A stretch of DNA of 64,000 nucleotides from a virus. The DNA is taken from IMG/VR virus record IMGVR_UViG_3300012930_000012, positions 1-64,000 of that record; one strand, 5' to 3'. Both the position numbers and the translations under genes were made by a program. Below are positions 25,660-41,231 of this stretch, in pieces. Under the pieces are notes generated by a model. It saw only the letters and a list, made by a program, of their open reading frames with translations, did not search any database and had not been told where the DNA came from. Each line of letters begins with the position of its first letter. The stretch's first letter is position 1.

Positions 25660-25949
25660 AGACGGAAGTGTGCGACCACGATTGCTTTGCTGAGGCGGCC
25701 ACAGAATCACAGGCCATGCCAGGCCGGGTGGGCTGGTTCATCTACGTGGCCAACGATGACGACTCTCACACCCATTTCCGCGGCAACACGGCGTTCGCCG
25801 GCAGGGCGCTGGCGGAGCTAGCCCAGAAGGTTATTGCCGGGCACGAGAACACCGGCTGTGTGCAATGTGACACCACGGCCTTGGCTCTTGCGAATGCTTT
25901 GAAGGTTTACCAGGCCACCATGGCATACGCCCGGGGACCAAAATGCTAA
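25656..25949 (+). CDS. Hypothetical Cys/His protein
   Basis: AAGGAG RBS; overlapping chain. Confidence 0.5.
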   Translation: MKTEVCDHDCFAEAATESQAMPGRVGWFIYVANDDDSHTHFRGNTAFAGRALAELAQKVIAGHENTGCVQCDTTALALANALKVYQATMAYARGPKC

Positions 25950-26833
25950 CCCCCTTGGGCGCCCTTGTGCATTGGGTGAGAGAACGCGAATTGATTCGCG
26001 TTCAGAAAGACCGCGGTGAACCTTTCCCGTGGACCGACGATAAGATCCTTCGCACCTATCGCTTTTGCAACGTGCGCCGCGAGGATGACCGGGTCACCGT
26101 ATGGATCGCGAAGAACATTCGCGAGCCATACGCGGACCACCATCACCTCTGGTTCATGCTGTGCACGGCCAGAATGATAAACTGGCCGCACACGTTGGGC
26201 CTCCTTATAGGAGACCCAACACGCCCCCCAGAAGAGCGCATCTACCCCAACGCCTGGCCGGACTCAGCGTCCTTCTCACCCTCCGCCATGGCCGATGGGC
26301 TCGAGGACGTAGCGTCCATGGGCAAGGCGTTCACGGGCGCCTACATCATCCCATCGCCCGGCAAGGGGGAAAAGAAGCCACGCTGGATGGCCCAATGGGT
26401 GCTGGGTAACCTGTGGAAGGCCCGCGCCAGGTTTGAAACCCACTTTTCCCGCAATCCGTCGCTGCGGAGCACGCACAACCTTTTGACGACATTTGATTGC
26501 TGGGGCAACTTCTTAGCCTACCAGGCCATCATCGACATGCGCCACACGAGCTTGCTCTCAGAGGTCCCTGATCGGAACACCTGGTGCGCGGCCGGGCCAG
26601 GGACGATAAGAGGTCTGAATCGCCTTGCGGGCAGACCTCTTATCGCCCCCCTGACCCAGGAGCGAGCGCTCCTTGAAATTCAGTCACTCCAGCCCGTGGT
26701 GTGTCGGGAAACTGGCATGGACTTTGAACTGTACGAAATAACCGGCATCCTCTGTGAGACCGACAAATACCTCCGGGTAATGAACGGTGAGGGGGAGCCG
26801 CGGGCACGCTACGTGCCGGGGAGGGGGGCGTGA
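25943..26833 (+). CDS. aGPT-Pplase1 / 5-hmdU DNA kinase helical-domain family protein
   Basis: PWTDD.IL..YRFCNVRREDDRVT, FTGAY, FLAYQ..ID, GPG..RGL, LCETDKY motifs. Confidence 0.85.
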   Translation: MLTPLGALVHWVRERELIRVQKDRGEPFPWTDDKILRTYRFCNVRREDDRVTVWIAKNIREPYADHHHLWFMLCTARMINWPHTLGLLIGDPTRPPEERIYPNAWPDSASFSPSAMADGLEDVASMGKAFTGAYIIPSPGKGEKKPRWMAQWVLGNLWKARARFETHFSRNPSLRSTHNLLTTFDCWGNFLAYQAIIDMRHTSLLSEVPDRNTWCAAGPGTIRGLNRLAGRPLIAPLTQERALLEIQSLQPVVCRETGMDFELYEITGILCETDKYLRVMNGEGEPRARYVPGRGA

Positions 26834-28031: not shown

Positions 28032-28093
28032 GGACGTAACGTAAGGTTGGCGGCGCCGCTCCGCAAAGGGCGGCGTTGCCGCCTGGGGGTTAC

Positions 28094-29623
28094 ATGTCAC
28101 TTGCCGGTGATTTCAAACGCCTGTTCGATGGGCTAGACCGCTCTTACGGCCGCTATGTCGTGCCGACCGGCGCGCGTCCAAACGATAAGGGCAAGCTCCA
28201 CGACCCATCCTGGGCACGCACCGTGCACGGGGAGGTAACGCTTGAGCTTTGGGAACAGCACCTTGAAGGACGCTTTGGGCTAGGGATCGTTCCCATTAGG
28301 GACGATGCCACGTGTGTCTTTGGCGCCATAGACGTTGACATCTATCCGTTGGATCTTATAGACCTTGTAGCCTACGTTAAAAAGATGGAACTCCCCTTGG
28401 TGGTGTGCCGCACCAAATCTGGCGGCGCCCACCTGTACTTGTTTCTCACAGCCCCCGCCTCGGCGGAGCTTGTGAGAAGCAAGCTAATGGAATGGGCCGT
28501 GGTGCTGGGCTACCCCGGCGTTGAAGTATTCCCCAAGCAAACCAGGCTAGCCTCCGAAAAAGATGATGGTTCCTGGATCAATGCACCCTACAACGGTGGC
28601 AAACGATCAACCAGGTACGCGCTTAAACCCGACGGTGCCGCCATGTCGTCGGAGGAGTTTGTCATCGCTGCGCAACGCTCAGCCATAACCCCGCAAAAAC
28701 TGGCCGACTTTGAAATCCCCGCCGATGAAACCTCCGGCGACCTATTCTTAGGCGGCCCCCCTTGCCTCCAGACGCTATCCCGTAAGGGGTTTGGAGATTG
28801 GCAGAACAATGGGCTGTTCAACGTGGCGGTCTACCTCCGTAAGCGATGGGGCGACGGTTGGGAGGACAGGCTCGACGCTTACAATCATAAGTACATGAAC
28901 CCGCCGGTCTCCTCGAAAGATTTAGCCAACATCATCAAGTCGGTTAAGAAAAAAGCGTACTCGTATATGTGCAAGCAAGAGCCCATCTGCGGCGTGTGCA
29001 ACCGCCAGGTTTGCCTCACTCGGGACTTTGGTGTGGGCGGCCTTGGCGACGACCCCGGCGCCGTGCTGGGGGAGCTGTTGAAGCTCGAGACCGACCCGCC
29101 CACCTATATTTGGGACGTGGATGCGGCCCGTATTGAACTTACAGTCGATGACCTCATGGACCAGCGGCGCTTCCACAAGCTGGTGGTACAGCGCCTTAAC
29201 AAGTGGCCCAACATGGTCAAGCCATCTGTGTGGCAAACCATCGTCCGGGATCGGCTGGCCCGGGTTGAGGTGGTTGAAGTGCCCGAAGACGCCACGCGAG
29301 AGGGTCAGTTCTGGGTGCACGTGCAACGGTTTTGCACCTCCAAGGTTCGCGGCCGGAGCATGGATGAGCTATTGCTGGGAAAGCCTTTCACCGAGGATGG
29401 CCGCACCTACTTTTGCTCGACCGACCTCATCCAGTATTTGAACCAGCACCGTTTTAACGGAGTCACCGATAAGGAGGTTTACAAGTGGATGCGTAAACGC
29501 GGGGTGACGCACCACTCAGGCAACCTCAAGGGCAAGTTCGTCAACTACTGGAGCTTGCCGGCATTTCCAGAGCAAACCGTGGACCACGATGTACCGCACG
29601 CGGCCCCGGTGGAGCGTATGTAA
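28094..29623 (+). CDS. AEP-superfamily primase (primase-polymerase)
   Basis: FGAIDVD, RTKSGGAHLY, EVFPKQ, PPCL; Cys cluster. Confidence 0.85.
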   Translation: MSLAGDFKRLFDGLDRSYGRYVVPTGARPNDKGKLHDPSWARTVHGEVTLELWEQHLEGRFGLGIVPIRDDATCVFGAIDVDIYPLDLIDLVAYVKKMELPLVVCRTKSGGAHLYLFLTAPASAELVRSKLMEWAVVLGYPGVEVFPKQTRLASEKDDGSWINAPYNGGKRSTRYALKPDGAAMSSEEFVIAAQRSAITPQKLADFEIPADETSGDLFLGGPPCLQTLSRKGFGDWQNNGLFNVAVYLRKRWGDGWEDRLDAYNHKYMNPPVSSKDLANIIKSVKKKAYSYMCKQEPICGVCNRQVCLTRDFGVGGLGDDPGAVLGELLKLETDPPTYIWDVDAARIELTVDDLMDQRRFHKLVVQRLNKWPNMVKPSVWQTIVRDRLARVEVVEVPEDATREGQFWVHVQRFCTSKVRGRSMDELLLGKPFTEDGRTYFCSTDLIQYLNQHRFNGVTDKEVYKWMRKRGVTHHSGNLKGKFVNYWSLPAFPEQTVDHDVPHAAPVERM

Positions 29624-30765
29624 TGGACCTCAAACCCCTAAGCCCAGTAACCATTGACCGCGAGCGAACAAAGCTGGGCAAACGCGGTGAGCTACGCTGG
29701 CTGCACGTAAGACAGCTGGTCGTGGACCCTCGATACCAGCGGGCGGTTGGCCTTAAAGGCACAGACAATATCAAAAAGATCGCGAAGGAATTCTCCTGGA
29801 GCTTCTTTTCCCCGGTCATCGTCTCCCCACGAAAGAGCGGCCAATACGCAATAATAGACGGGCAACACCGCGCCACGGCGGCCGTATCGCGTGGGGATAT
29901 CGAGGAAATCCCGTGCCTGGTGCTGGCGGCAACACCAGAGGAAGAGGCAATGGCCTTCGCCAAGATCAACGGTACCGTAACAAAAGTCTCGCCGCTGGCC
30001 ATCTTCCGCGCCGAGTTTATGGCGGCCAAGCCAGACGTGATGCGCCTAACCGAAATTGTCTTCCGCGCCGATGTTGTAATCTTGGGCTATCCCAAAACCA
30101 AAGACAAGATGCTGGTCGGGGAAACCATGTCTGTTGTGTCAATTAAAGATTGCCTACGCAAGTTTGGGGAAAAGGTTTTGGTGGCGGCCTTGCGGACCAT
30201 TACCAAAACGGGGAATGGGAACCCTGGAATGCTAAAGGAAGAGGTTATATCCGGCACGTGCGACATATTGTCCAATCACCCCCATTGGTGGGTAGATGAA
30301 CCAAAGCTCTTAGCAACCGTGAATGCGGTTGGCATAGTGGAACTCCACAGGCGAGCATCCATAGCCAAAGGTGCCGCCGGAAAAGGCAGCTATCGCGAGC
30401 ACTACGCCTCCGCGTTTCTATCAGCCGTAGCACCGGCCTTTAAACCCACCCAGGTAGCCGTGGGTGTCCATGCCCCCCTGGCTTCGCTACCTACACTACA
30501 AAAACCTGTCAACCACGATCGTGCTCTCATTGAGGCGGCCTTGGCCGCCGGCAAGGTACGACGGTTTGACACCTCAGATTCCAGTGAGTTTTGGGTGCTA
30601 GCGGAATACATGCTCCATCGCACTGGTAAGGAATACAAACTTCTTAAGCGCAAGCCATCGCTGGATGGCCGAATCCTTGATTGGGACAAGTTCTATGAAC
30701 TTGTAAACCGCGAACGTGTCAAGGAAAAGAAACCGCCTATAACCCCCAAGCAAGGAGCAAAATGA
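29623..30765 (+). CDS. ParB/DndB-like (DUF6551-like) protein
   Basis: VDPRYQR ... IIDGQHR motif. Confidence 0.75.
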   Translation: MDLKPLSPVTIDRERTKLGKRGELRWLHVRQLVVDPRYQRAVGLKGTDNIKKIAKEFSWSFFSPVIVSPRKSGQYAIIDGQHRATAAVSRGDIEEIPCLVLAATPEEEAMAFAKINGTVTKVSPLAIFRAEFMAAKPDVMRLTEIVFRADVVILGYPKTKDKMLVGETMSVVSIKDCLRKFGEKVLVAALRTITKTGNGNPGMLKEEVISGTCDILSNHPHWWVDEPKLLATVNAVGIVELHRRASIAKGAAGKGSYREHYASAFLSAVAPAFKPTQVAVGVHAPLASLPTLQKPVNHDRALIEAALAAGKVRRFDTSDSSEFWVLAEYMLHRTGKEYKLLKRKPSLDGRILDWDKFYELVNRERVKEKKPPITPKQGAK

Positions 30766-35455: not shown

Positions 35456-36087
35456 GCGTGTACCTCATTACCTACCGTAACTACTTGGAGCGTGTGCGGG
35501 TGTACCGCTATGAGACGATACAGGATGCGGATCGGGCGCTGGCGCTGCCGGACGCCGACCAGGCGGTAAGCGGCTTTGTTGCCTCCGTGCCGCACAACAG
35601 TGTGAATACGAGCACCACGCTCCTCCAGGATTTGCTTGACCAGTGGCGCAAGCCAGATGAACCTGAACATGATCTTGGAACCCACGGCAAGGTGAAGCAA
35701 CGCTTCTTTACCGTGCTTGAATCAACTTACGGCCACATTCCTCTGAGTGTGGCACCAGCCTTGCCGGCACCTGGCGCACCGGCCGCTGAAACCAACCCCG
35801 CGCCAACAATGGAGACTGCAATGGCAAAGAAGGCAAAAAAGACACCGAAGGCGAAAAAGGAAGCCAACGGCCCAAAGGCGCCCCGCGCATTGAAGCAGGG
35901 CATGGTGTTCGCGCTCAAGGGCTTCGTGCTCAAGAACCCGGGCATCACGGACGAAGACTTGATGGCGAAGCTCAAGGGCGACGGCTTCAAGCCGGCCGAA
36001 TCCTCGGTGGCCACGTTCCGCCAGGACTTTGTGCACTCCCTGAGGTTTCTCAACCTCCAGGGCTACAAGGTGCCGGAACCCGGCTAA
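35452..36087 (+). CDS. Two-domain protein with Lys-rich linker and wHTH-like C-terminus
   Basis: ATGA overlap start; MAKKAKKTPKAKK segment with internal GGAG-ATG at 35821. Confidence 0.6.
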   Translation: MSVYLITYRNYLERVRVYRYETIQDADRALALPDADQAVSGFVASVPHNSVNTSTTLLQDLLDQWRKPDEPEHDLGTHGKVKQRFFTVLESTYGHIPLSVAPALPAPGAPAAETNPAPTMETAMAKKAKKTPKAKKEANGPKAPRALKQGMVFALKGFVLKNPGITDEDLMAKLKGDGFKPAESSVATFRQDFVHSLRFLNLQGYKVPEPG

Positions 36088-36863
36088 TGTTGGACATACA
36101 CACCTTCGCGTACTTGGATTCACCTACGCCGGTTCAGGTGCGCGAAGGTGTGTTCCTAAAGCGGGACGATTTATTTCTCGCAGCTGGAGCACCGGGTGGC
36201 AAGGCCAGGACTTGCTGGCACCTGTCACAAGGCGCAAAGGGCCTTGTGACAGCGTCCAGCCGGGCATCGCCACAAATGAACATTGTGGCCCGCATTGCCG
36301 CCCACCTGGGCATCCCAGCCAGGCTCCATTGCCCCCAGGGTGCTTTCACACCGGAGATGAACGAGGCCCGCTCCTTTGGAGCGGTCATCGTTCAGCATCG
36401 CGCCGGCTACAACTCGGTCATAAAGGCCCGCGCCAAGGCCGACGCTTTGACACTTGGTTGGACCCACATACCGTTTGGGATGGAATGCCAGGAGGCCGTG
36501 AAGCAAACGGCCACACAAGTGGCACATCTTCCGGCGGAAATACGCCGCGTGGTCATGGCCGTTGGTAGCGGCATGTCGCTGGCCGGCGTGCTCAATGGGC
36601 TCACCCAGCACCGGCTAAACATCCCCATCCTAGGTGTCGTGGTGGGCGCCGACCCCACGGCCAGGCTCACCCAGTACGCCCCACTATTCTGGCGCACTGT
36701 GGTGGAATTGGTGCAGCCCGGCATCGATTATCACAAACCCGCACCATTGACGGACATCGGAGATGTCCATCTTGACCCCATCTACGAGGCCAAGTGTTTG
36801 CCATATCTTAAAGAGGATGACCTCTTTTGGCTGGTGGGCATACGGGCGAGTGCCATGCAATGA
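36087..36863 (+). CDS. PLP-dependent enzyme (fold type II)
   Basis: LKRDD...GGKAR (PLP Lys), SPQ, VGSGMS, LDPIYEAK. Confidence 0.85.
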   Translation: MLDIHTFAYLDSPTPVQVREGVFLKRDDLFLAAGAPGGKARTCWHLSQGAKGLVTASSRASPQMNIVARIAAHLGIPARLHCPQGAFTPEMNEARSFGAVIVQHRAGYNSVIKARAKADALTLGWTHIPFGMECQEAVKQTATQVAHLPAEIRRVVMAVGSGMSLAGVLNGLTQHRLNIPILGVVVGADPTARLTQYAPLFWRTVVELVQPGIDYHKPAPLTDIGDVHLDPIYEAKCLPYLKEDDLFWLVGIRASAMQ

Positions 36864-37633
36864 CTGACGACCTCCTCTTTAGCAAGAAGAGTCAAAACCG
36901 CCTCAACGAAATCATGAGCGGAACGGAGGATGGTGGATTTTCAACCGGCACCTCGATCTTCGACCCCGTGCTGTGTGAACTGGTGTACCGTTGGTTCTGC
37001 CCAGGGGGGGGACAGATCATTGATCCCTTTGCCGGCGGGTCCGTGCGCGGCATCGTGGCCGCCAAGTTAGGCTATGCCTACACAGGTATTGACTTATCTA
37101 GCAGACAGCTGGAAGCAAACCGCATCCAGGCCGCCACCATTTGCAAGGATGGGCCAACGCCAACCTGGGTGGACGGCAACAGCCTGGAAATTGAAGCCTT
37201 ACTGGAAGACGTGCGTGCGGACCTTGTATTTTCCTGCCCACCATACGCTGATTTAGAAATTTATTCGGATGACGAGCGGGACCTCTCAACCATGCCGTAT
37301 GAAGAATTCCGTTCGGTGTACACAGAAATCATCGCCGCGTGCGTGCGGATGCTTAAACCCAACCGCTTCGCCTGTTTCGTGGTGGGGGACATCCGCGATA
37401 AAGACGGCTTTTACCGCGGGTTCCCATGGCATACGGTCCAAGCGTTCCAAGATGCAGGTGCCCGGCTGTACAACGAGGCCATCCTTGTTACGGCCGTGGG
37501 GAGCTTGCCGGTGCGCATCACCCGGCAATTTTCAGGCGGGCGCAAGCTAGGCAAGACGCATCAGAACTTATTTGTCTTTTGCAAGGGAGATCCCATGTTA
37601 GCGGCGAGGGCGTGCGGAGCCAAAGATGACTAG
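36860..37633 (+). CDS. DNA amino-methyltransferase-like protein (N-terminally truncated)
   Basis: TSIFDPVLCE, DPFAGG SAM motif, SCPPY catalytic motif, KTHQN. Confidence 0.85.
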   Translation: MTDDLLFSKKSQNRLNEIMSGTEDGGFSTGTSIFDPVLCELVYRWFCPGGGQIIDPFAGGSVRGIVAAKLGYAYTGIDLSSRQLEANRIQAATICKDGPTPTWVDGNSLEIEALLEDVRADLVFSCPPYADLEIYSDDERDLSTMPYEEFRSVYTEIIAACVRMLKPNRFACFVVGDIRDKDGFYRGFPWHTVQAFQDAGARLYNEAILVTAVGSLPVRITRQFSGGRKLGKTHQNLFVFCKGDPMLAARACGAKDD

Positions 37634-37871
37634 TCTACCCATTGACTATCGACGCCGGCCCTGGAAGGCCAAGTACATAGACACCGAGTGTCTAGCAACA
37701 AATCGCTGGTGCATCTTGGGAGAATATCAAGATGGCACTGTTAGCATCACAGACGGAACAGACGATATAATGGAACACGTGCCAAAAGACGTGGCTCAAA
37801 ACATCGTTGATGCCCGTAACACCTTTGTTGACACCCTCATGAAGCACATTGGCTATGCACGAAACGATTAA
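37626..37871 (+). CDS. Hypothetical protein
   Basis: GGAG RBS, overlapping chain. Confidence 0.5.
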   Translation: MTSLPIDYRRRPWKAKYIDTECLATNRWCILGEYQDGTVSITDGTDDIMEHVPKDVAQNIVDARNTFVDTLMKHIGYARND

Positions 37872-38811
37872 CTTCCTAAAACGCGCACTATCCCGCGCCC
37901 CTAATGCCGGCATGTTCGGCTGCTACCACGTGAGCGAAGGCTACATGTTCGCCCAGAACGAAAGCCTCCAGGCCGTGGTCCCGCTTGAATCATCCGATAG
38001 CTTTTCCGTGCCCGGCGAGGAGCTTGAAGCCATGCTGGCGCGGATGCACAGCGACCCACACGTGGAAATAGGCGACGGCGAGCTACGCATCAAGAGCGGT
38101 AGGCTCCGCGGCAACATCCCGTGCGTGCCCGGCACCCCACCCAGCATATTCACCCGCGACGTCGACTGGCTCCCCCTGCCCGACGCCCTGGTGCCGGCGT
38201 TGCAAAAGGCCACCCAGTTCCTCGTGGGCACCAGCCTCATCGGGTGGACAGGGGGCGTGCGGCTCATGGACGGGCGATTGACGACCGTCAATAATCTGTG
38301 CGGCATTGACTTGGCGGTGCCGGGTTGGCAATCCACGCCATCAATTCTCACAAAGGATGGGGCGGAGTTTTTGATGGCAGATCCGCCGTGCGATTACGCG
38401 GCCAAGGCTGGGGCTTTGTTGTTCCGCTGGCCCGATGACCGCTCGGTCCAGTGCCAGCTTATTGACCAGGTGATGCCTGAGCTGGTGGACGACATCTTTG
38501 CCAAGGCTGGCCAGGATGCGCCCGTGGAAATAACCGCCGAGTGGCGCGATGCCTTCGCGGATGCCGCAGCCATATCAGATGAGACGGTCGAGCTACATGC
38601 GGGTCATCTCAAGGTGGGTAAAGGCTCATCCAAGGTCACCCTAGAGGTTTCCACGGCTGTGCCGGCGGACCACGTGTCGTACTGGAACACCAAGGTGCTG
38701 GCTCCGATGGTAGCGGTGGCCACCCATTGGAATCCGCTGGCGCACCCCAAGCCGGCGCTGTTCCGTGGACCGGGGCTGTACGGCGTTGTGATGGGAGTGA
38801 TGCGGCGATGA
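37855..38811 (+). CDS. Putative sliding-clamp (beta-clamp-like) protein
   Basis: ~318 aa alpha/beta repeat pattern, C-terminal F.G...GVVMG, directly upstream of polymerase. Confidence 0.6.
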   Translation: MHETINFLKRALSRAPNAGMFGCYHVSEGYMFAQNESLQAVVPLESSDSFSVPGEELEAMLARMHSDPHVEIGDGELRIKSGRLRGNIPCVPGTPPSIFTRDVDWLPLPDALVPALQKATQFLVGTSLIGWTGGVRLMDGRLTTVNNLCGIDLAVPGWQSTPSILTKDGAEFLMADPPCDYAAKAGALLFRWPDDRSVQCQLIDQVMPELVDDIFAKAGQDAPVEITAEWRDAFADAAAISDETVELHAGHLKVGKGSSKVTLEVSTAVPADHVSYWNTKVLAPMVAVATHWNPLAHPKPALFRGPGLYGVVMGVMRR

Positions 38812-41231
38812 GTGACAAGAAAGAAACCCCATCGCTCGCGGGTGGGCTAACGTTTGGGATGACCAGCGGCCCATACGATGGCCGCGAGGAGCGTCGTAAG
38901 AATAAGGCAAAGGTCGATAGTGCGTTGTACGGGGACGGGCTATTGGGGGATTCGCTTGCGCCCAAACGTAGCGGCGAGCTGGCCAACAAGTTCATGATAC
39001 CGCCGTTCACCGTGTTCAACGCGCGTGAGGGTTGGTGGCAGGATCGCAAGGCAGCCTGGCTGGCGCTGGGCATCCAGAGCGAGCTAGGGCGCGGTGGGGA
39101 TGAAATTGCCGTGGCGGATGCCGCGGCGCTGGACAGCGCCCGCGCTCGAAGCAAGGCCAGTAGCCAGGCGGTAGTCGGCGGCCGTGGTACGGCCATGTCA
39201 AACGCTCTGGCACCCCGAAAACGCAACACCATCCATCGCGCAGACCCCAGCATAACCGTGGTGCATAACCCACCCCCATTGATGGAGCGGGCGGCACCGT
39301 GGGTGGCCCCGTCAGAACTCCCATCACTTCGCGGCGTGAAACGATTATGCGCCGATGTTGAGACCAGGGATGAGCAACTGCTTGAAATAGGCCCCGGTTT
39401 CCACAGGGGGACCTCCTACATCGTGGGGCTCGGCATAGGCACCAACGATGGTCGGCGTTTCTACTTCCCCACCAGACACGAGGGTGGCGGTAACTTAGAT
39501 GAGGGCGTGGTCCAAAAATGGGCGCGCGAGGAGCTAAACGCTTATGATGGCGAGCTGGTTGGCGCCCATAACATCTACGATCTCGAGGCGCTAGGCACCT
39601 GGGGGGTCACGTTTCCTAACGTTAAGGTCCACCACGATATCCAGGTATGTGAACCCTTGCTGGATGAGTGGCGCAACTCGTACACACTGGAAGCCATCGC
39701 CCAGGACTACCTTGGCGAGGGCAAAGTGGAGGGTACGCTCCGGGAAGCCGCGGCGTTGCACGGCGCCACCACCAATTCTCAAATCAAAAAGATCTTATGG
39801 AAATTGCCGGCCGGGTACGTGGGAGCTTACGCGGAGGGGGATGTCGATCTCCCTCTGCGCATTCTCCCGCTCCAGCTAAAGCGCCTCACGGAAGAAAACC
39901 TCGATGAAGTTTACACCGTGGAGCGCAAGCTCATCCCCATCTTGCTCGCCATGCGCCAGCGCGGGATACCCGTCAACACCGACCAGGCGGAGTACGTGCG
40001 GGAACAGCTCACTTTCACCCGCGATGCGGCGCTTAAGCGGGTACGGGATATCGCTGGCCCACAGGCGGAGCTTATGGCCCCGGAGAGCTTTGCCCAGGCG
40101 TTTGTGGACCGCGGGCTGACACCACCTCTAACACCTAGTTCGGGCAAGCCACGGAGCGGCGGAGGTTTTAACCCAGACAAGTTTTCCATCACCAAGGACT
40201 GGCTCAAGGCGCACCAGAACGACGAGCTGGCCGCAGCGCTGTTAGAGGGCCGCGGGGTAGAGCACATCATCAACACCTACATCAACGGCCATATCCTAAC
40301 GCACTCGGTCAACGGCCGGGTGCATTGTGAATTTAACCAGTTAAAATCAGAGGATGAAAAGGGAACCATAGCCCGTTTCTCATCCTCCAACCCCAACATG
40401 CAAAATTTACCTATGCGGGAGGAAGAGCTGGCCGCCATGATCCGCGGCATGTTCCGCCCCGAGGATGGTGAGACCTGGGTGCGGCACGACCTCTCCCAAA
40501 TTGAATATCGGCTACTGGCTCACTTTGCCGTTGGGCCGGGGTCTGAGGAGTGCCGGCGCCAGTACCGCGAGGACCCCAAGACCGACTACCACAAGCTGGT
40601 GGCCACCTGGCTTGGGATTGATCCCGGCGACAAGCACCGCCGAGTCCAGGTTAAAGGCATCAACTTCGCCAAGGGCTATGGTGCTGGGGCACGCAAGCTG
40701 GCCTACCTCATCGGTTGTTCGTTATCGGAGGCCGAGGAGTTCGTTGCCCTTTACGAACAAAAGTTACCGTTCGCCAAGAGCACCTACGATGCCGCCATGC
40801 GATGGGCGGAAAAGCAAGGATACGTGACGACGATCCTTGGCCGCCGGCAGCGCTTCCTCCTTTGGGAACCCTTTGACAACTACCAGCGCGAGAATCCTCC
40901 GTTACGGCACGAAGCCGCGCTTAAGGAGTACGGCCAGCGCATCAAACGCTTCAAGAGTTACGCCGCGCTCAACCGCAAGCTTCAAGGGTCCGGCGCCGAC
41001 GTCATCAAGAAAGGCATGGTGGATGCTTACGAGGCCGGCACGTTTGCCGTACTCGGCGCCCCCCTGGTCACGGTGCACGACGAGCTAGGATGGTCGGTAC
41101 CGAACACGCCTCAAGGTACTGAGGCGTGTTCAGTAGCCCATCGTTGCCTGGAAAAGGCAGTGACGCTCAAGGTGCCGGTGTACGTGGATGAAGGACGTGG
41201 CAAGGATTGGGGGGAGGCCAGCGCGGGATGA
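38808..41231 (+). CDS. polA: Family A DNA polymerase with N-terminal extra module
   Basis: Exo DVET/HNIYD/YAEGD; RFSSSNPNMQN; DLSQIEYR; R...KGINF..GYG; TVHDE. Confidence 0.95.
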   Translation: MSDKKETPSLAGGLTFGMTSGPYDGREERRKNKAKVDSALYGDGLLGDSLAPKRSGELANKFMIPPFTVFNAREGWWQDRKAAWLALGIQSELGRGGDEIAVADAAALDSARARSKASSQAVVGGRGTAMSNALAPRKRNTIHRADPSITVVHNPPPLMERAAPWVAPSELPSLRGVKRLCADVETRDEQLLEIGPGFHRGTSYIVGLGIGTNDGRRFYFPTRHEGGGNLDEGVVQKWAREELNAYDGELVGAHNIYDLEALGTWGVTFPNVKVHHDIQVCEPLLDEWRNSYTLEAIAQDYLGEGKVEGTLREAAALHGATTNSQIKKILWKLPAGYVGAYAEGDVDLPLRILPLQLKRLTEENLDEVYTVERKLIPILLAMRQRGIPVNTDQAEYVREQLTFTRDAALKRVRDIAGPQAELMAPESFAQAFVDRGLTPPLTPSSGKPRSGGGFNPDKFSITKDWLKAHQNDELAAALLEGRGVEHIINTYINGHILTHSVNGRVHCEFNQLKSEDEKGTIARFSSSNPNMQNLPMREEELAAMIRGMFRPEDGETWVRHDLSQIEYRLLAHFAVGPGSEECRRQYREDPKTDYHKLVATWLGIDPGDKHRRVQVKGINFAKGYGAGARKLAYLIGCSLSEAEEFVALYEQKLPFAKSTYDAAMRWAEKQGYVTTILGRRQRFLLWEPFDNYQRENPPLRHEAALKEYGQRIKRFKSYAALNRKLQGSGADVIKKGMVDAYEAGTFAVLGAPLVTVHDELGWSVPNTPQGTEACSVAHRCLEKAVTLKVPVYVDEGRGKDWGEASAG

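Follow-up and report, generated by a model that had tools for sequence, protein, structure and literature searches.

Can a phage DNA methyltransferase (MTase) be divided so that one of its parts travels on the replicative polymerase? The question is raised by a 64,000-nucleotide stretch of viral DNA (positions 1 to 64,000 of IMG/VR record IMGVR_UViG_3300012930_000012; hereafter, the window), in which a first-pass annotation noticed an MTase gene devoid of a conserved N-terminal block, a similar block ahead of the exonuclease domain of the family A DNA polymerase (PolA) and a clamp-like gene between the two, and proposed that the enzyme is reconstituted in trans on the polymerase. Our analysis makes it probable that the MTase core at 36860-37633 and the block on the replicative family A polymerase constitute a two-part DNA amino-MTase, an arrangement by which the modification of DNA is probably tied to its replication. 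Our literature search found no paper describing an MTase block carried by a phage polymerase.

The MTase core and the polymerase-borne block

All of the elements named in the first-pass annotation were found where it had placed them, including the clamp-like gene (phrog_947) between MTase and PolA (Table 1). The MTase start codon overlaps the stop codon of the upstream gene for a PLP-dependent enzyme as ATGA, indicative of translational coupling, and PolA (38808-41231) is joined to the clamp-like gene by the same ATGA overlap of start and stop codons. The PLP-enzyme gene, which has weak NCBIfam matches to the CuyA, DcyD and IlvA families, encodes a frequent partner of the family that lay outside the earlier account; the 81-aa ORF gave zero significant matches in Pfam and PHROG scans. 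The whole genome (73.5 kb) contains exactly one block and one core, and additionally encodes a dCTP deaminase and a ThyX-type thymidylate synthase.

Table 1. Genes and gene parts of the MTase-polymerase locus, in window coordinates
Feature	Position	Strand	Evidence
Fold-type II PLP-dependent enzyme (ACC-deaminase / D-Cys desulfhydrase / Thr-dehydratase-like)	36087..36863	+	PF00291, E 2.6e-13
MTase catalytic core, 257 aa, without N-terminal block	36860..37633	+	PF01555, phrog_12517
81-aa ORF between MTase and clamp gene	37626..37871	+	ORF only
Clamp-like DNA polymerase processivity factor	37849..38811	+	phrog_947, E 1.9e-21
PolA N-terminal leader, residues 1-57	38808..38978	+	GGLTFG-type and LYGDGLLG motifs
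Block, PolA residues 58-96	38979..39095	+	Predicted beta-strand and helix; homology to MTase blocks
Ala/Pro/Ser-rich linker, block to exonuclease domain	39096..39330	+	Low conservation in alignment A4
Family A DNA polymerase proper (3'-5' exonuclease and polymerase)	39331..41231	+	PF00476, E 2.8e-54; phrog_17, E 7.5e-87

The MTase carries motif X, motif I (DPFAGGS, residues 55-61) and motif IV (SCPPY, residues 125-129), scores 39.5 bits against PF01555 (cut-off 26.7) in two separate stretches, and is 51-66% identical to the 39 other cores of A3. It retains every family-invariant residue of this 40-core alignment, in which D55, P56, F57, G59, G60 and S61 of motif I are invariant, as are the PPY of motif IV and the Cys that precedes it. 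The canonical catalytic motif IV is (D/N/S)PP(Y/F); because the motif here starts with Cys instead, plain amino-methylation is an assumption. Motif I precedes motif IV (126-129), the reverse of the beta-class order (IV before I), and the fold of the core fits gamma-order amino-MTases. The nearest folds are the NPPY-type amino-MTases TrmN (Z 18.6, rmsd 2.1, 177 aligned) and aTrm11 (Z 18.0); the nearest enzymes by sequence are DNA N6A/N4C MTases, and the family profile matches solved members of that group (2zie, 9.1e-13; CcrM, MboIIA and PvuII) with the motif order permuted. The core family is a large phage group related to the PF01555 N6-A/N4-C MTases, with the motif order X-I...IV(CPPY).

Judged by alignment, the gene at 36860 encodes a complete MTase core, which starts a few residues past the block end of fused relatives. 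As the earlier annotation had maintained, the MTase polypeptide has no block N-terminal to the core, the only one in the genome being on PolA, and the window core aligns with fused relatives (e.g. that of locus L035) from just past the block. PHROG coverage is complementary: residues 21-254 of the MTase match positions 75-313 of the 316 in phrog_12517, and those only (E 7.8e-97), and the part of the profile nearer its start, positions 21-68, is matched by residues 49-99 of PolA.

When PolA residues 1-181 were compared by tblastn with 50,697 phage records, the N-terminal part of the MTase genes of Erythrobacter phages ZS04 and R6L was matched with 80.5% identity (E 8e-15). The block also matched ZS04 gp7 by BLASTP (E 3e-21) and phrog_15396 (E 3.1e-14), as expected from the claim that it aligns with MTase N-terminal parts, and at the DNA level the window core and the PolA block both mapped to a single ZS04/R6L gene (78% identity). 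These matches, far above the chance level, establish PolA 58-96 as a true homologue of the block that stands before the core in an MTase family widespread among phages. Of the limits first given for the block, about 38973-39095, the end stands and the start lies 6 nt later, at 38979. The figure of about 160 aa ahead of the exonuclease domain was roughly right, the phrog_17 match, which begins at PolA residue 175, indicating about 165-175 residues; the match to PF00476 (184.9 bits, cut-off 34.3) covers residues 401-803.

Among the best 120 listed matches to PolA residues 1-180 were 17 diverged block-carrying PolA proteins. Although these are only 45-64% identical overall (the range for the window PolA against its 16 relatives), the block is the best-conserved stretch of the PolA N-terminus, with 21 invariant positions within residues 62-96 and variable flanking parts (alignment A4), and nearly the same set of positions is invariant in 33 fused MTases. 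In the leader, G42, L45 and L50 are invariant in A4, and the GGLTFG-type and LYGDGLLG motifs recur among other block carriers; regions of the L035 model that match the window PolA linker have low pLDDT. The block had zero Pfam or NCBIfam matches and so corresponds to no named domain, and none of the solved structures searched covers its sequence.

Pairing of block and core across the phage family

The family, which numbers at least 584 viral loci, was sampled through the block (80 loci) and through the core (73 loci). The block-sampled set comprised 44 split and 34 fused loci, one locus with a block only (L049, at a contig end) and one, at a contig edge, without a block ORF; in the core-sampled set, 25 loci were fused, 38 had the block on an adjoining ORF and 10 had no block. 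Each of these ten has less than 1.5 kb upstream, so that all 63 informative core loci have the block, and among the loci searched no block-bearing locus with adequate flanks was without a core. In 34 of 34 fused loci, and in all fused classes of stored proteins, the block stands ahead of the core in the chain, and three tandem BLOCK-CORE-BLOCK-CORE proteins have kept one block per core. From this co-occurrence, every family member seems to need the approximately 40-residue block, either covalently or from another protein.

About half of the family members have the block on a separate ParB-domain protein, and the usual place of the block is internal, in the order ParB, block, core. The block had been described as the normal N-terminus of the MTase; it does precede the core, but it is mostly internal, behind ParB, and not a true N-terminus. 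Carriers of the block that have no core in the same chain comprise ParB proteins, two polymerase families, small proteins of 71-132 aa and five ParB-block-PLP proteins. Because so many members of the family, about half, are split, the unusual feature of the window is the carrier, a polymerase, and not the split.

The same split was also found in other phages. Genomic context was in hand for three of the 17 PolA-block proteins, those of the window, L199 (P0005) and L005 (whose 804-aa PolA is taken to be P0006 from its length and contig size), and the independent contigs L005 and L199 repeat the window layout of block-less core, clamp and block-PolA. In all five block-polymerase loci with upstream context (the window, L005, L199, L202 and L203), a block-less core lies before the clamp gene, and the clamp gene is directly 5′ of the polymerase gene in L005, L017, L035, L199, L200, L201, L202 and L203. 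A whole MTase is joined to PolA in two loci, L201 (a 968-aa protein of the same clamp-PolA lineage, with PolA 50% identical) and L161 (a 1086-aa protein), and 238 stored proteins include 22 of the form BLOCK-CORE-POLA and three variants. In a PolA tree (quick IQ-TREE run, 44 rows, SH-aLRT supports only, with a long L160 branch), the fused L201 and P0237 are nested within the split clade (SH-aLRT 99), which implies that the core there re-joined the block in the canonical order. The N-terminal module is found, in addition, on a polymerase of a second, unrelated family (phrog_1252, E 6.7e-161), the carriers being L202 and seven database proteins; L202 encodes this block-polymerase and a separate block-less core, and its non-PolA polymerase shares the window leader (54% identity over residues 4-130). 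The arrangement is maintained across a whole phage lineage.

Predicted docking, proposed mechanism and competing readings

A complex model of the PolA block with the MTase core, a check suggested in the first-pass annotation, scored 0.74, and the best of three controls scored 0.00. Of 80 solved complexes, 58 attain the mark used for such scores, as do 2 of 110 mismatched pairs; these counts calibrate the result only roughly because custom alignments were used. Runs shared at least 34% of contacts with a partner pLDDT of at least 47, the fold of the partner (the PolA block) being uncertain at a pLDDT below 50 in at least one run. In the natural fused enzyme, AF2 modelled the block as a strand (68-72) and a helix (76-87) with a pLDDT of about 80-87. 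The predicted interface involves PolA 62-73 and 77-94 and core 32-45, 59-69, 80-94 and 205-213; PolA 66-73 pairs with core 205-213, the block helix lies on motifs X and I, and the block is thereby predicted to dock on the core beside the SAM motifs. The passing score may reflect intramolecular contacts known from single-chain relatives rather than intermolecular affinity.

We propose that the core obtains its block from the N-terminal part of the replicative family A polymerase, that the block strand would extend the edge strand of the core sheet (core residues 205-213) and that the block helix would pack onto motif X and motif I beside the SAM pocket. The core would be held on the polymerase by the block and would possibly be competent only then, the block being required for catalysis or for recruitment only; fresh phage DNA would be methylated at the fork, most plausibly as restriction protection. 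We infer physical binding of block to core, and with it reconstitution on the polymerase, which is supported by block-core co-occurrence, the whole-MTase-PolA fusions, the second polymerase family and the complex model that passed its controls. A bolder version, which we consider unlikely, holds that the block completes the cofactor site, that the core is switched on only at the polymerase and marks nascent phage DNA while leaving all other DNA alone, with a non-methyl group in which the PLP partner and the Cys take part, and that the block is a portable activation tag; if so, evolution would have moved it among ParB, two unrelated polymerases and small adaptor proteins.

Were the block instead an autonomous module with its own DNA or replisome job, making contact with nucleic acid or a replication protein and serving the same pathway as the MTase without forming one enzyme with it, then its core-less carriers and its conserved Arg, Lys and Trp residues, which could bind nucleic acid, would find an explanation, and the zero solved structures covering its sequence leave room for such a role. 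We judge this distinctly unlikely, given that in shared chains the block always stands N-terminal to the core, that 1:1 pairing survives tandem duplication, that no informative core locus is without a block, that the sole block-only locus ends at a contig edge, and that in the model the block docks on the core, whereas each of the three controls scored 0.00.

The coupling of the PLP-enzyme gene to the core hints that the chemistry may exceed methyl transfer. A PLP gene adjoins 23 of the 80 block-sampled loci, and a PLP domain is inserted between core motifs III and IV in ZS04, Pam4, L163, L164, L167 and about 44 stored proteins. Core and PLP enzyme might in that case install a larger amino-acid-derived group, and the polymerase tether would serve replication-coupled hypermodification, a reading to which the invariant Cys at the first position of motif IV and the dCTP deaminase and thymidylate synthase of the genome could be fitted. 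The other 57 loci have no PLP gene nearby, however, and none was seen within the fetched flanks of L199 and L201; SAM motif I is invariant, the nearest folds and sequences are those of ordinary amino-MTases, and the gene at 25943 matched phrog_2396 in the PHROG scan, so that membership of a 5-hmdU-kinase family was not borne out. We therefore hold hypermodification to be very unlikely. Barely credible is a decaying rearrangement relic or assembly artefact on PolA with a crippled pseudo-enzyme as core, for which the poor conservation of the window PolA past the block and the degenerate form of the relatives' 'APGGS' motif might be cited, and which is effectively refuted by conservation: the layout is common to independent contigs of different samples, no other part of the PolA N-terminus is conserved as well as the block, the core has all family-invariant residues, and the genes are intact and translationally coupled. 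Misassembly, or a split confined to a single contig, was likewise rejected, the invariant block residues being kept in the 17 diverged PolA proteins and the module recurring on the unrelated polymerase and in the whole-MTase-PolA fusions.

A two-part enzyme tied to the polymerase would bear on how phages modify their DNA quickly enough against restriction, a problem of timing that it would solve at the source. The family provides natural, repeated evolutionary evidence for polymerase-coupled DNA methylation, in two polymerase families and three architectures. It also defines a short, highly conserved and unannotated module, and the two-protein form of the enzyme in about half of its loci bears on the annotation of 'ParB-like' and 'DNA methylase' genes. 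For proximity-dependent DNA labelling, a 40-residue tag of natural origin that docks or activates an MTase could be of use, and the close tie to a PLP enzyme poses the testable question of a novel DNA modification.

Comparison with known systems

The closest counterparts are the ParB-linked phage MTases (phrog_12517, phrog_498 and phrog_15396), including ZS04 gp7, the ParB and MTase pair of Microcystis phage Mae-JY30 and gp77 of Listeria phage B054, which have the same core (51-66%) and the same block, and whose two-gene ParB-block and core forms are split at a point identical to that of the window. These proteins are annotated, and we found no characterisation of them in the literature. They carry the block on a ParB protein, whereas in the window it is on a replicative polymerase with no ParB domain attached.

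Other MTases that depend on a second polypeptide differ more. As summarised in PMC3404938, M.AquI and M.EcoHK31I are two-polypeptide enzymes whose subunits must associate, one MTase fold being made from two polypeptides, as is proposed for the window; they belong to the C5-cytosine MTases, their split falls within or after the variable region or at motif IX, and their small subunits are dedicated proteins and not a polymerase domain. Trm112, as described in PMC5372719, activates Trm11, Mtq2/HEMK2, Bud23, Trm9 and METTL5 by adding a beta-strand to the MTase sheet and burying hydrophobic surface, and is needed for SAM binding. The nearest solved folds to the core are Trm11, TrmN and Trm14, and the logic proposed for the block would resemble that of Trm112. 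In contrast to Trm112, a Zn-knuckle protein that zips to strand beta3 (PMC5372719), the block, a strand and helix of 40 residues, is predicted to add at the other edge of the sheet (core 205-213, read as beta6); there is zero sequence relationship between the two, and the substrates of the Trm112 enzymes are RNA or protein, not DNA.

With respect to the polymerase, the UDG-PolA proteins of SP-15/YerA41-like phages have an N-terminal fused DNA-processing domain (PMC13697223) and likewise use the phage PolA N-terminus as a platform that couples base processing to replication. They fuse a whole active enzyme; the window PolA would fuse a docking or completing fragment, with the remainder recruited in trans. 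The earlier evidence that we found for polymerase-coupled methylation comes from the Pol I-associated ssDNA MTases of the M.EcoGIX type (M.EcoGIX and M.BceJIII), whose activity, according to PMC7736820, follows Pol I in co-purification and co-immunoprecipitation and disappears once Pol I is lost, and from engineered MTase::PolI fusions, which are active. These are PF01555-superfamily amino-MTases tied to a family A polymerase, as proposed here, but by the same source they are single-chain beta-class enzymes (DPPY) bound non-covalently to host Pol I, whereas the window core has the order I then IV and CPPY. A tblastn search of 72,556 plasmids with a fused member returned four records, none from E. 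coli or Burkholderia, and on sequence grounds M.EcoGIX and M.BceJIII are not close relatives of the window family. By analogy with them, the window lineage, L161 and L201 look like natural versions of Pol I-MTase coupling.

The window operon and the polymerase-borne block

The viral record containing the window (73,467 bp, rated 100% complete) carries at 36.0-41.3 kb a tightly packed plus-strand operon that encodes a PLP-dependent enzyme, a DNA methyltransferase (MTase), an 81-aa ORF, a clamp and a family A polymerase (PolA; see the table). The best-supported explanation of this locus, and one that we regard as probable, is that the MTase is split and is reconstituted in trans on the polymerase, the catalytic body (core) being encoded by the MTase gene and the ~40-residue conserved module that precedes it in relatives (block) residing on PolA. 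ATGA stop-start overlaps occur at both the PLP/MTase and the clamp/PolA junctions, and the PLP gene is translationally coupled to the MTase core.

Features of the window, with the matches that identify them
Feature	Coordinates	Strand	Match or position
Gene with PHROG match	25943-26833		phrog_2396 (no annotated function), E 3e-60 (PHROG scan)
Primase gene	28076-29623		
ParB-like partition protein gene	29623-30765		phrog_1033, E 2.1e-25; PF02195 below cut-off
Fold-type II PLP enzyme	36087-36863	+	PF00291, E 2.6e-13
MTase	36860-37633	+	PF01555, 39.5 bits; phrog_12517, E 7.8e-97
MTase motif IV	37232-37246		MTase residues 125-129
81-aa ORF between MTase and clamp gene	37626-37871	+	no family match
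Clamp-like processivity factor	37849-38811	+	phrog_947, E 1.9e-21
Family A polymerase (PolA)	38808-41231	+	PF00476, E 2.8e-54
GGLT(F/W)G...Y motif	38841-38858		PolA residues 12-17
Block	38979-39095	+	PolA residues 58-96
(A/T)PGGS..P...Y motif, degenerate	about 39170-39230		

The first-pass annotation had described a long N-terminal extension of PolA that includes an MTase-like segment, and this was borne out: approximately 170 residues precede the exonuclease domain, and the block lies within them. Its homology to MTase N-termini was likewise upheld, both by tblastn and BLASTP matches and by the fact that the PolA N-terminus and the MTase cover complementary stretches of a single family, phrog_12517 (positions 21-68 and 75-313, respectively). 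In the Erythrobacter phages ZS04 and R6L, one gene is aligned by both the window's MTase core and the PolA block (78% identity in DNA), and the block matches the ZS04/R6L MTase with 80.5% protein identity (E 8e-15; BLASTP E 3e-21). The proposal that the window's MTase lacks the block and starts about where the block would end also stood when it was aligned to a single-chain relative, the enzyme of locus L035. In this enzyme the GRG end of the block is followed by residues that align with the start of the window's MTase, which places the split point in a short linker directly after the block. The PolA N-terminus also matches phrog_15396, a "ParB-like" family (positions 147-233, E 3.1e-14); neither the block nor PolA residues 1-181 matched a Pfam or NCBIfam family. 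Misassembly or a frameshift as the origin of the split was ruled out, since many independent contigs show it.

The genome contains one copy of the block and one of the core. The possibility that a ParB gene at another site in the genome carries a second block was dismissed, as the ParB-like gene, which adjoins the primase gene, has none.

Modularity of the block-core family

The family is modular, and the split is a family-level trait. Three layouts are already displayed by the named relatives ZS04, Pam4 and Mae-JY30. ZS04 gp7 (812 aa) consists, in order, of ParB, block, linker, the motif-I half of the MTase, an inserted PLP domain and the PPY half of the MTase; Pam4 gp70 (829 aa) has the same Pfam domains, with an alignment that runs through the motif-I half; and Mae-JY30 has three adjacent genes, encoding ParB plus block, core and PLP enzyme.

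The family was sampled both by block (80 viral loci) and by core (73 further loci). Among the loci sampled by block, separate genes for a ParB-block protein and a core were found in 34 of 80, a separate core together with a block protein in which no ParB was detected in 9, and block-PolA plus a separate core in 1 (L005); a further 34 were fused (28 with ParB and 6 without), and the remainder comprised one locus at a contig end that had only a block and one at a contig edge where no block ORF was found. Among the 73 sampled by core, 25 were fused, and in 38 a neighbouring ORF carried the block. Upstream sequence is <1.5 kb in all 10 core loci without a block, and the block is therefore present at 63 of 63 informative core loci. 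In addition, three stored database proteins of 716-724 aa (P0143, P0145 and P0147) have a tandem block-core-block-core arrangement, in which a duplicated MTase retains one block for each core. The block therefore behaves like a component that the enzyme cannot do without, whether it is encoded in cis or in trans.

ParB-domain proteins are the usual carriers in trans. Some chains combine ParB, block and a PLP domain but have no core (P0063, P0069, P0080, P0081 and P0106), so that a ParB-PLP fusion can also carry the block. Matches to the block-core MTase in a Borrelia turcica plasmid (H17; NZ_CP028891.1, a linear-plasmid record; 31% identity over 80% of the query) and in Haloarcula californiae tailed virus 2 (H49; 44% identity) extend the family across bacterial and archaeal mobile elements.

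Polymerases carrying the block or a complete methyltransferase

PolA residues 1-180, searched against a large protein collection, gave 266 hits, the best 120 of which included 17 PF00476 proteins with the block, the window's among them. Overall identity among these 17 is 45-64%, yet within residues 62-96 they share 21 invariant positions, a set that recurs almost unchanged in 33 fused MTases. Seven further hits have the same N-terminal module on a second polymerase family, their polymerase parts being 46-73% identical to that of locus L202, whose polymerase matches phrog_1252 (E 6.7e-161); in the L202 polymerase PolA was not detected, and Pfam gave only a weak "divergent family B" hit.

Locus context was obtained by pattern-based retrieval from viral and metagenome contigs, which covered some of the fusions and 3 of the 17 PolA-block proteins, namely the window's, P0005 (identical to that of L199) and that of L005 (its PolA presumed, on length and contig size, to be P0006). 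The same split was present in other phages, L005 and L199 sharing the order block-less core, clamp, block-PolA. Where available, the context of block-polymerase loci is consistent. The order in L202 is PLP enzyme, block-less core, clamp and block on the phrog_1252 polymerase, and in L203 core, clamp and a block protein interrupted by the contig end. L017 has a small block protein, PLP enzyme, core, clamp and PolA without block, and L035 a fused block-core, clamp and a phrog_1252 polymerase without block.

Two short motifs recur among these proteins. Polymerases of both families that bear the block have "GGLT(F/W)G...Y" at their extreme N-terminus (also L202, 5784-8561); the motif is further found on the MTase in L017 (2052-3047), where PolA has no block, and twice in L035 (9869-11017), and it may be a second replisome-contact motif. 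"(A/T)PGGS..P...Y" lies close to the block, on either side of it (e.g. P0005, P0007, P0009, P0014 and P0016); 37 of 133 non-redundant split carriers of the block have it versus 10 of 277 fused enzymes, counts that are not independent events because the sequences are related. Intein/homing-endonuclease domains (precomputed Pfam PF14890, PF14528 and PF05204) lie within the polymerase of P0004, P0008, P0134 and P0149.

Complete MTases fused to polymerases also occur. In L201, a 968-aa block-core-PolA protein with a complete MTase lies behind the same clamp gene, its PolA part being 50% identical to the window's, and in L161 a distant PolA carries a complete MTase (1086 aa), between an upstream PLP gene that overlaps it and a downstream clamp gene. 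The block-core-PolA architecture was found in 22 of 238 stored proteins, plus one more with an intein, and core-PolA, probably N-truncated, in 2 of 238. L160, from an AT-rich phage, has a PolA gene followed directly by a fused block-core gene. Neither the L201 nor the L161 fusion was present in any of 50,697 deposited phage records; L201 matched 338 of these through its polymerase part only, none with at least 80% query coverage, and the MTase part of L161 matched 27, annotated as MTase, ParB-like or hypothetical.

A tree of PolA domains (44 rows, quick IQ-TREE, with SH-aLRT support only; intein-bearing P0134 and P0149 and the duplicate L199 excluded) has two deep clades. One comprises 23 fully fused forms; in the other, the block-less PolA of L017 branches first, followed by 17 split forms, and the split forms enclose a fused pair, L201 and P0237, with 99% support. 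The cheapest reading of this topology is that in the L201/P0237 sub-lineage the core was re-inserted between block and polymerase, which would have restored the canonical order. If block and core were not parts of a single enzyme, such a re-insertion would be difficult to account for.

Predicted fit, chemistry and relation to known systems

In an AlphaFold2 model of the fused L035 enzyme (33-row alignment; mean pLDDT 70.5), the core is confident and the block forms a strand (68-72) and a helix (76-87) with pLDDT of about 80-87, between disordered linkers. For a complex between the window's core and PolA residues 36-135, the prediction scored 0.74 (runs 0.78, 0.66 and 0.74), against 0.00 for the best of three controls. 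In calibration, 58 of the 80 solved complexes and 2 of the 110 mismatched pairs attained that mark, counts that apply here only approximately because our own alignments were supplied. The runs share at least 34% of contacts, with partner pLDDT of at least 47, and the pass may stem from the model's knowledge of single-chain relatives. The predicted interface pairs PolA 66-73 with core 205-213, read by alignment with the L035 model as edge strand beta6, and places the block helix and the loop after it (residues 77-94) against core 32-45 (motif X), 59-69 (motif I plus the helix that follows) and 80-94. An arrangement of this kind suggests that the cofactor side of the MTase fold is completed or stabilised by the block.

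A family profile of the core matched solved DNA N4-C/N6-A MTases in the PDB (2zie, 9.1e-13; CcrM, MboIIA and PvuII), with the segments in permuted order. The nearest folds by VIA-align are m2G amino-MTases (TrmN, Z 18.6, rmsd 2.1, 177 aligned; aTrm11, Z 18.0; Trm14, Z 17.3), with PrmC and METTL5-TRMT112 also among the matches and no counterpart of the block indicated; Foldseek against the PDB gave generic class I MTases only. Motif I is canonical and invariant. The first position of motif IV in amino-MTases is usually D, N or S; here the motif is S-C-P-P-Y, with the Cys conserved without exception across 40 cores and 33 fused enzymes. On account of these profile matches, folds and motifs, the enzyme is read as an exocyclic-amine DNA MTase, with m6A or m4C the most likely product. 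A PLP gene is adjacent in 23 of the 80 block-sampled loci, and in many relatives, the ZS04-type proteins, the PLP domain lies inside the MTase, between its motif-I and PPY halves (L001, 2326-4764; L163, L164 and L167); no PLP gene occurs within the fetched flanks of L199 and L201. This insertion and coupling hint at chemistry beyond methyl transfer, and a non-methyl modification is possible.

The statement that no example had been described agrees with a literature search, covering main texts outside subscription journals, which gave no natural MTase-polymerase fusion or polymerase-borne MTase fragment. A reclassification of family A polymerases and a preprint on "jumping DNA polymerases" make no mention of methyltransferase, methylase or MTase, and the Erythrobacter phage name retrieved unrelated papers only. 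The high interest of the finding lies in the fact that several natural architectures, independent of one another, converge on coupling DNA modification to a polymerase.

Its components have precedents. Single strands are methylated by the beta-class enzymes M.EcoGIX and M.BceJIII, whose activity accompanies Pol I in both co-purification and co-immunoprecipitation, and engineered MTase::PolI fusions retain both activities (Fomenkov et al., PMC7736820). The natural fusions in the window's family also indicate this principle, although M.EcoGIX and M.BceJIII are not close kin and differ in motif order; membership of the window's enzyme in their family was dropped because tblastn of a fused member against a plasmid collection gave 4 records, none relevant. 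For the division into block and core, the comparison is with known two-polypeptide MTases such as M.AquI and M.EcoHK31I, C5 enzymes with dedicated small subunits (PMC3404938). Trm112, which activates Trm11, Mtq2, Bud23 and Trm9 via strand addition and is required for SAM binding (PMC5372719), is a mechanistic analogue of the block, with no kinship, and a phage PolA with a fused UDG (PMC13697223) is an analogue for the PolA N-terminus serving as a platform. The arrangement in the window is thus a variant of split MTases, partner-activated MTases and polymerase-associated methylation.
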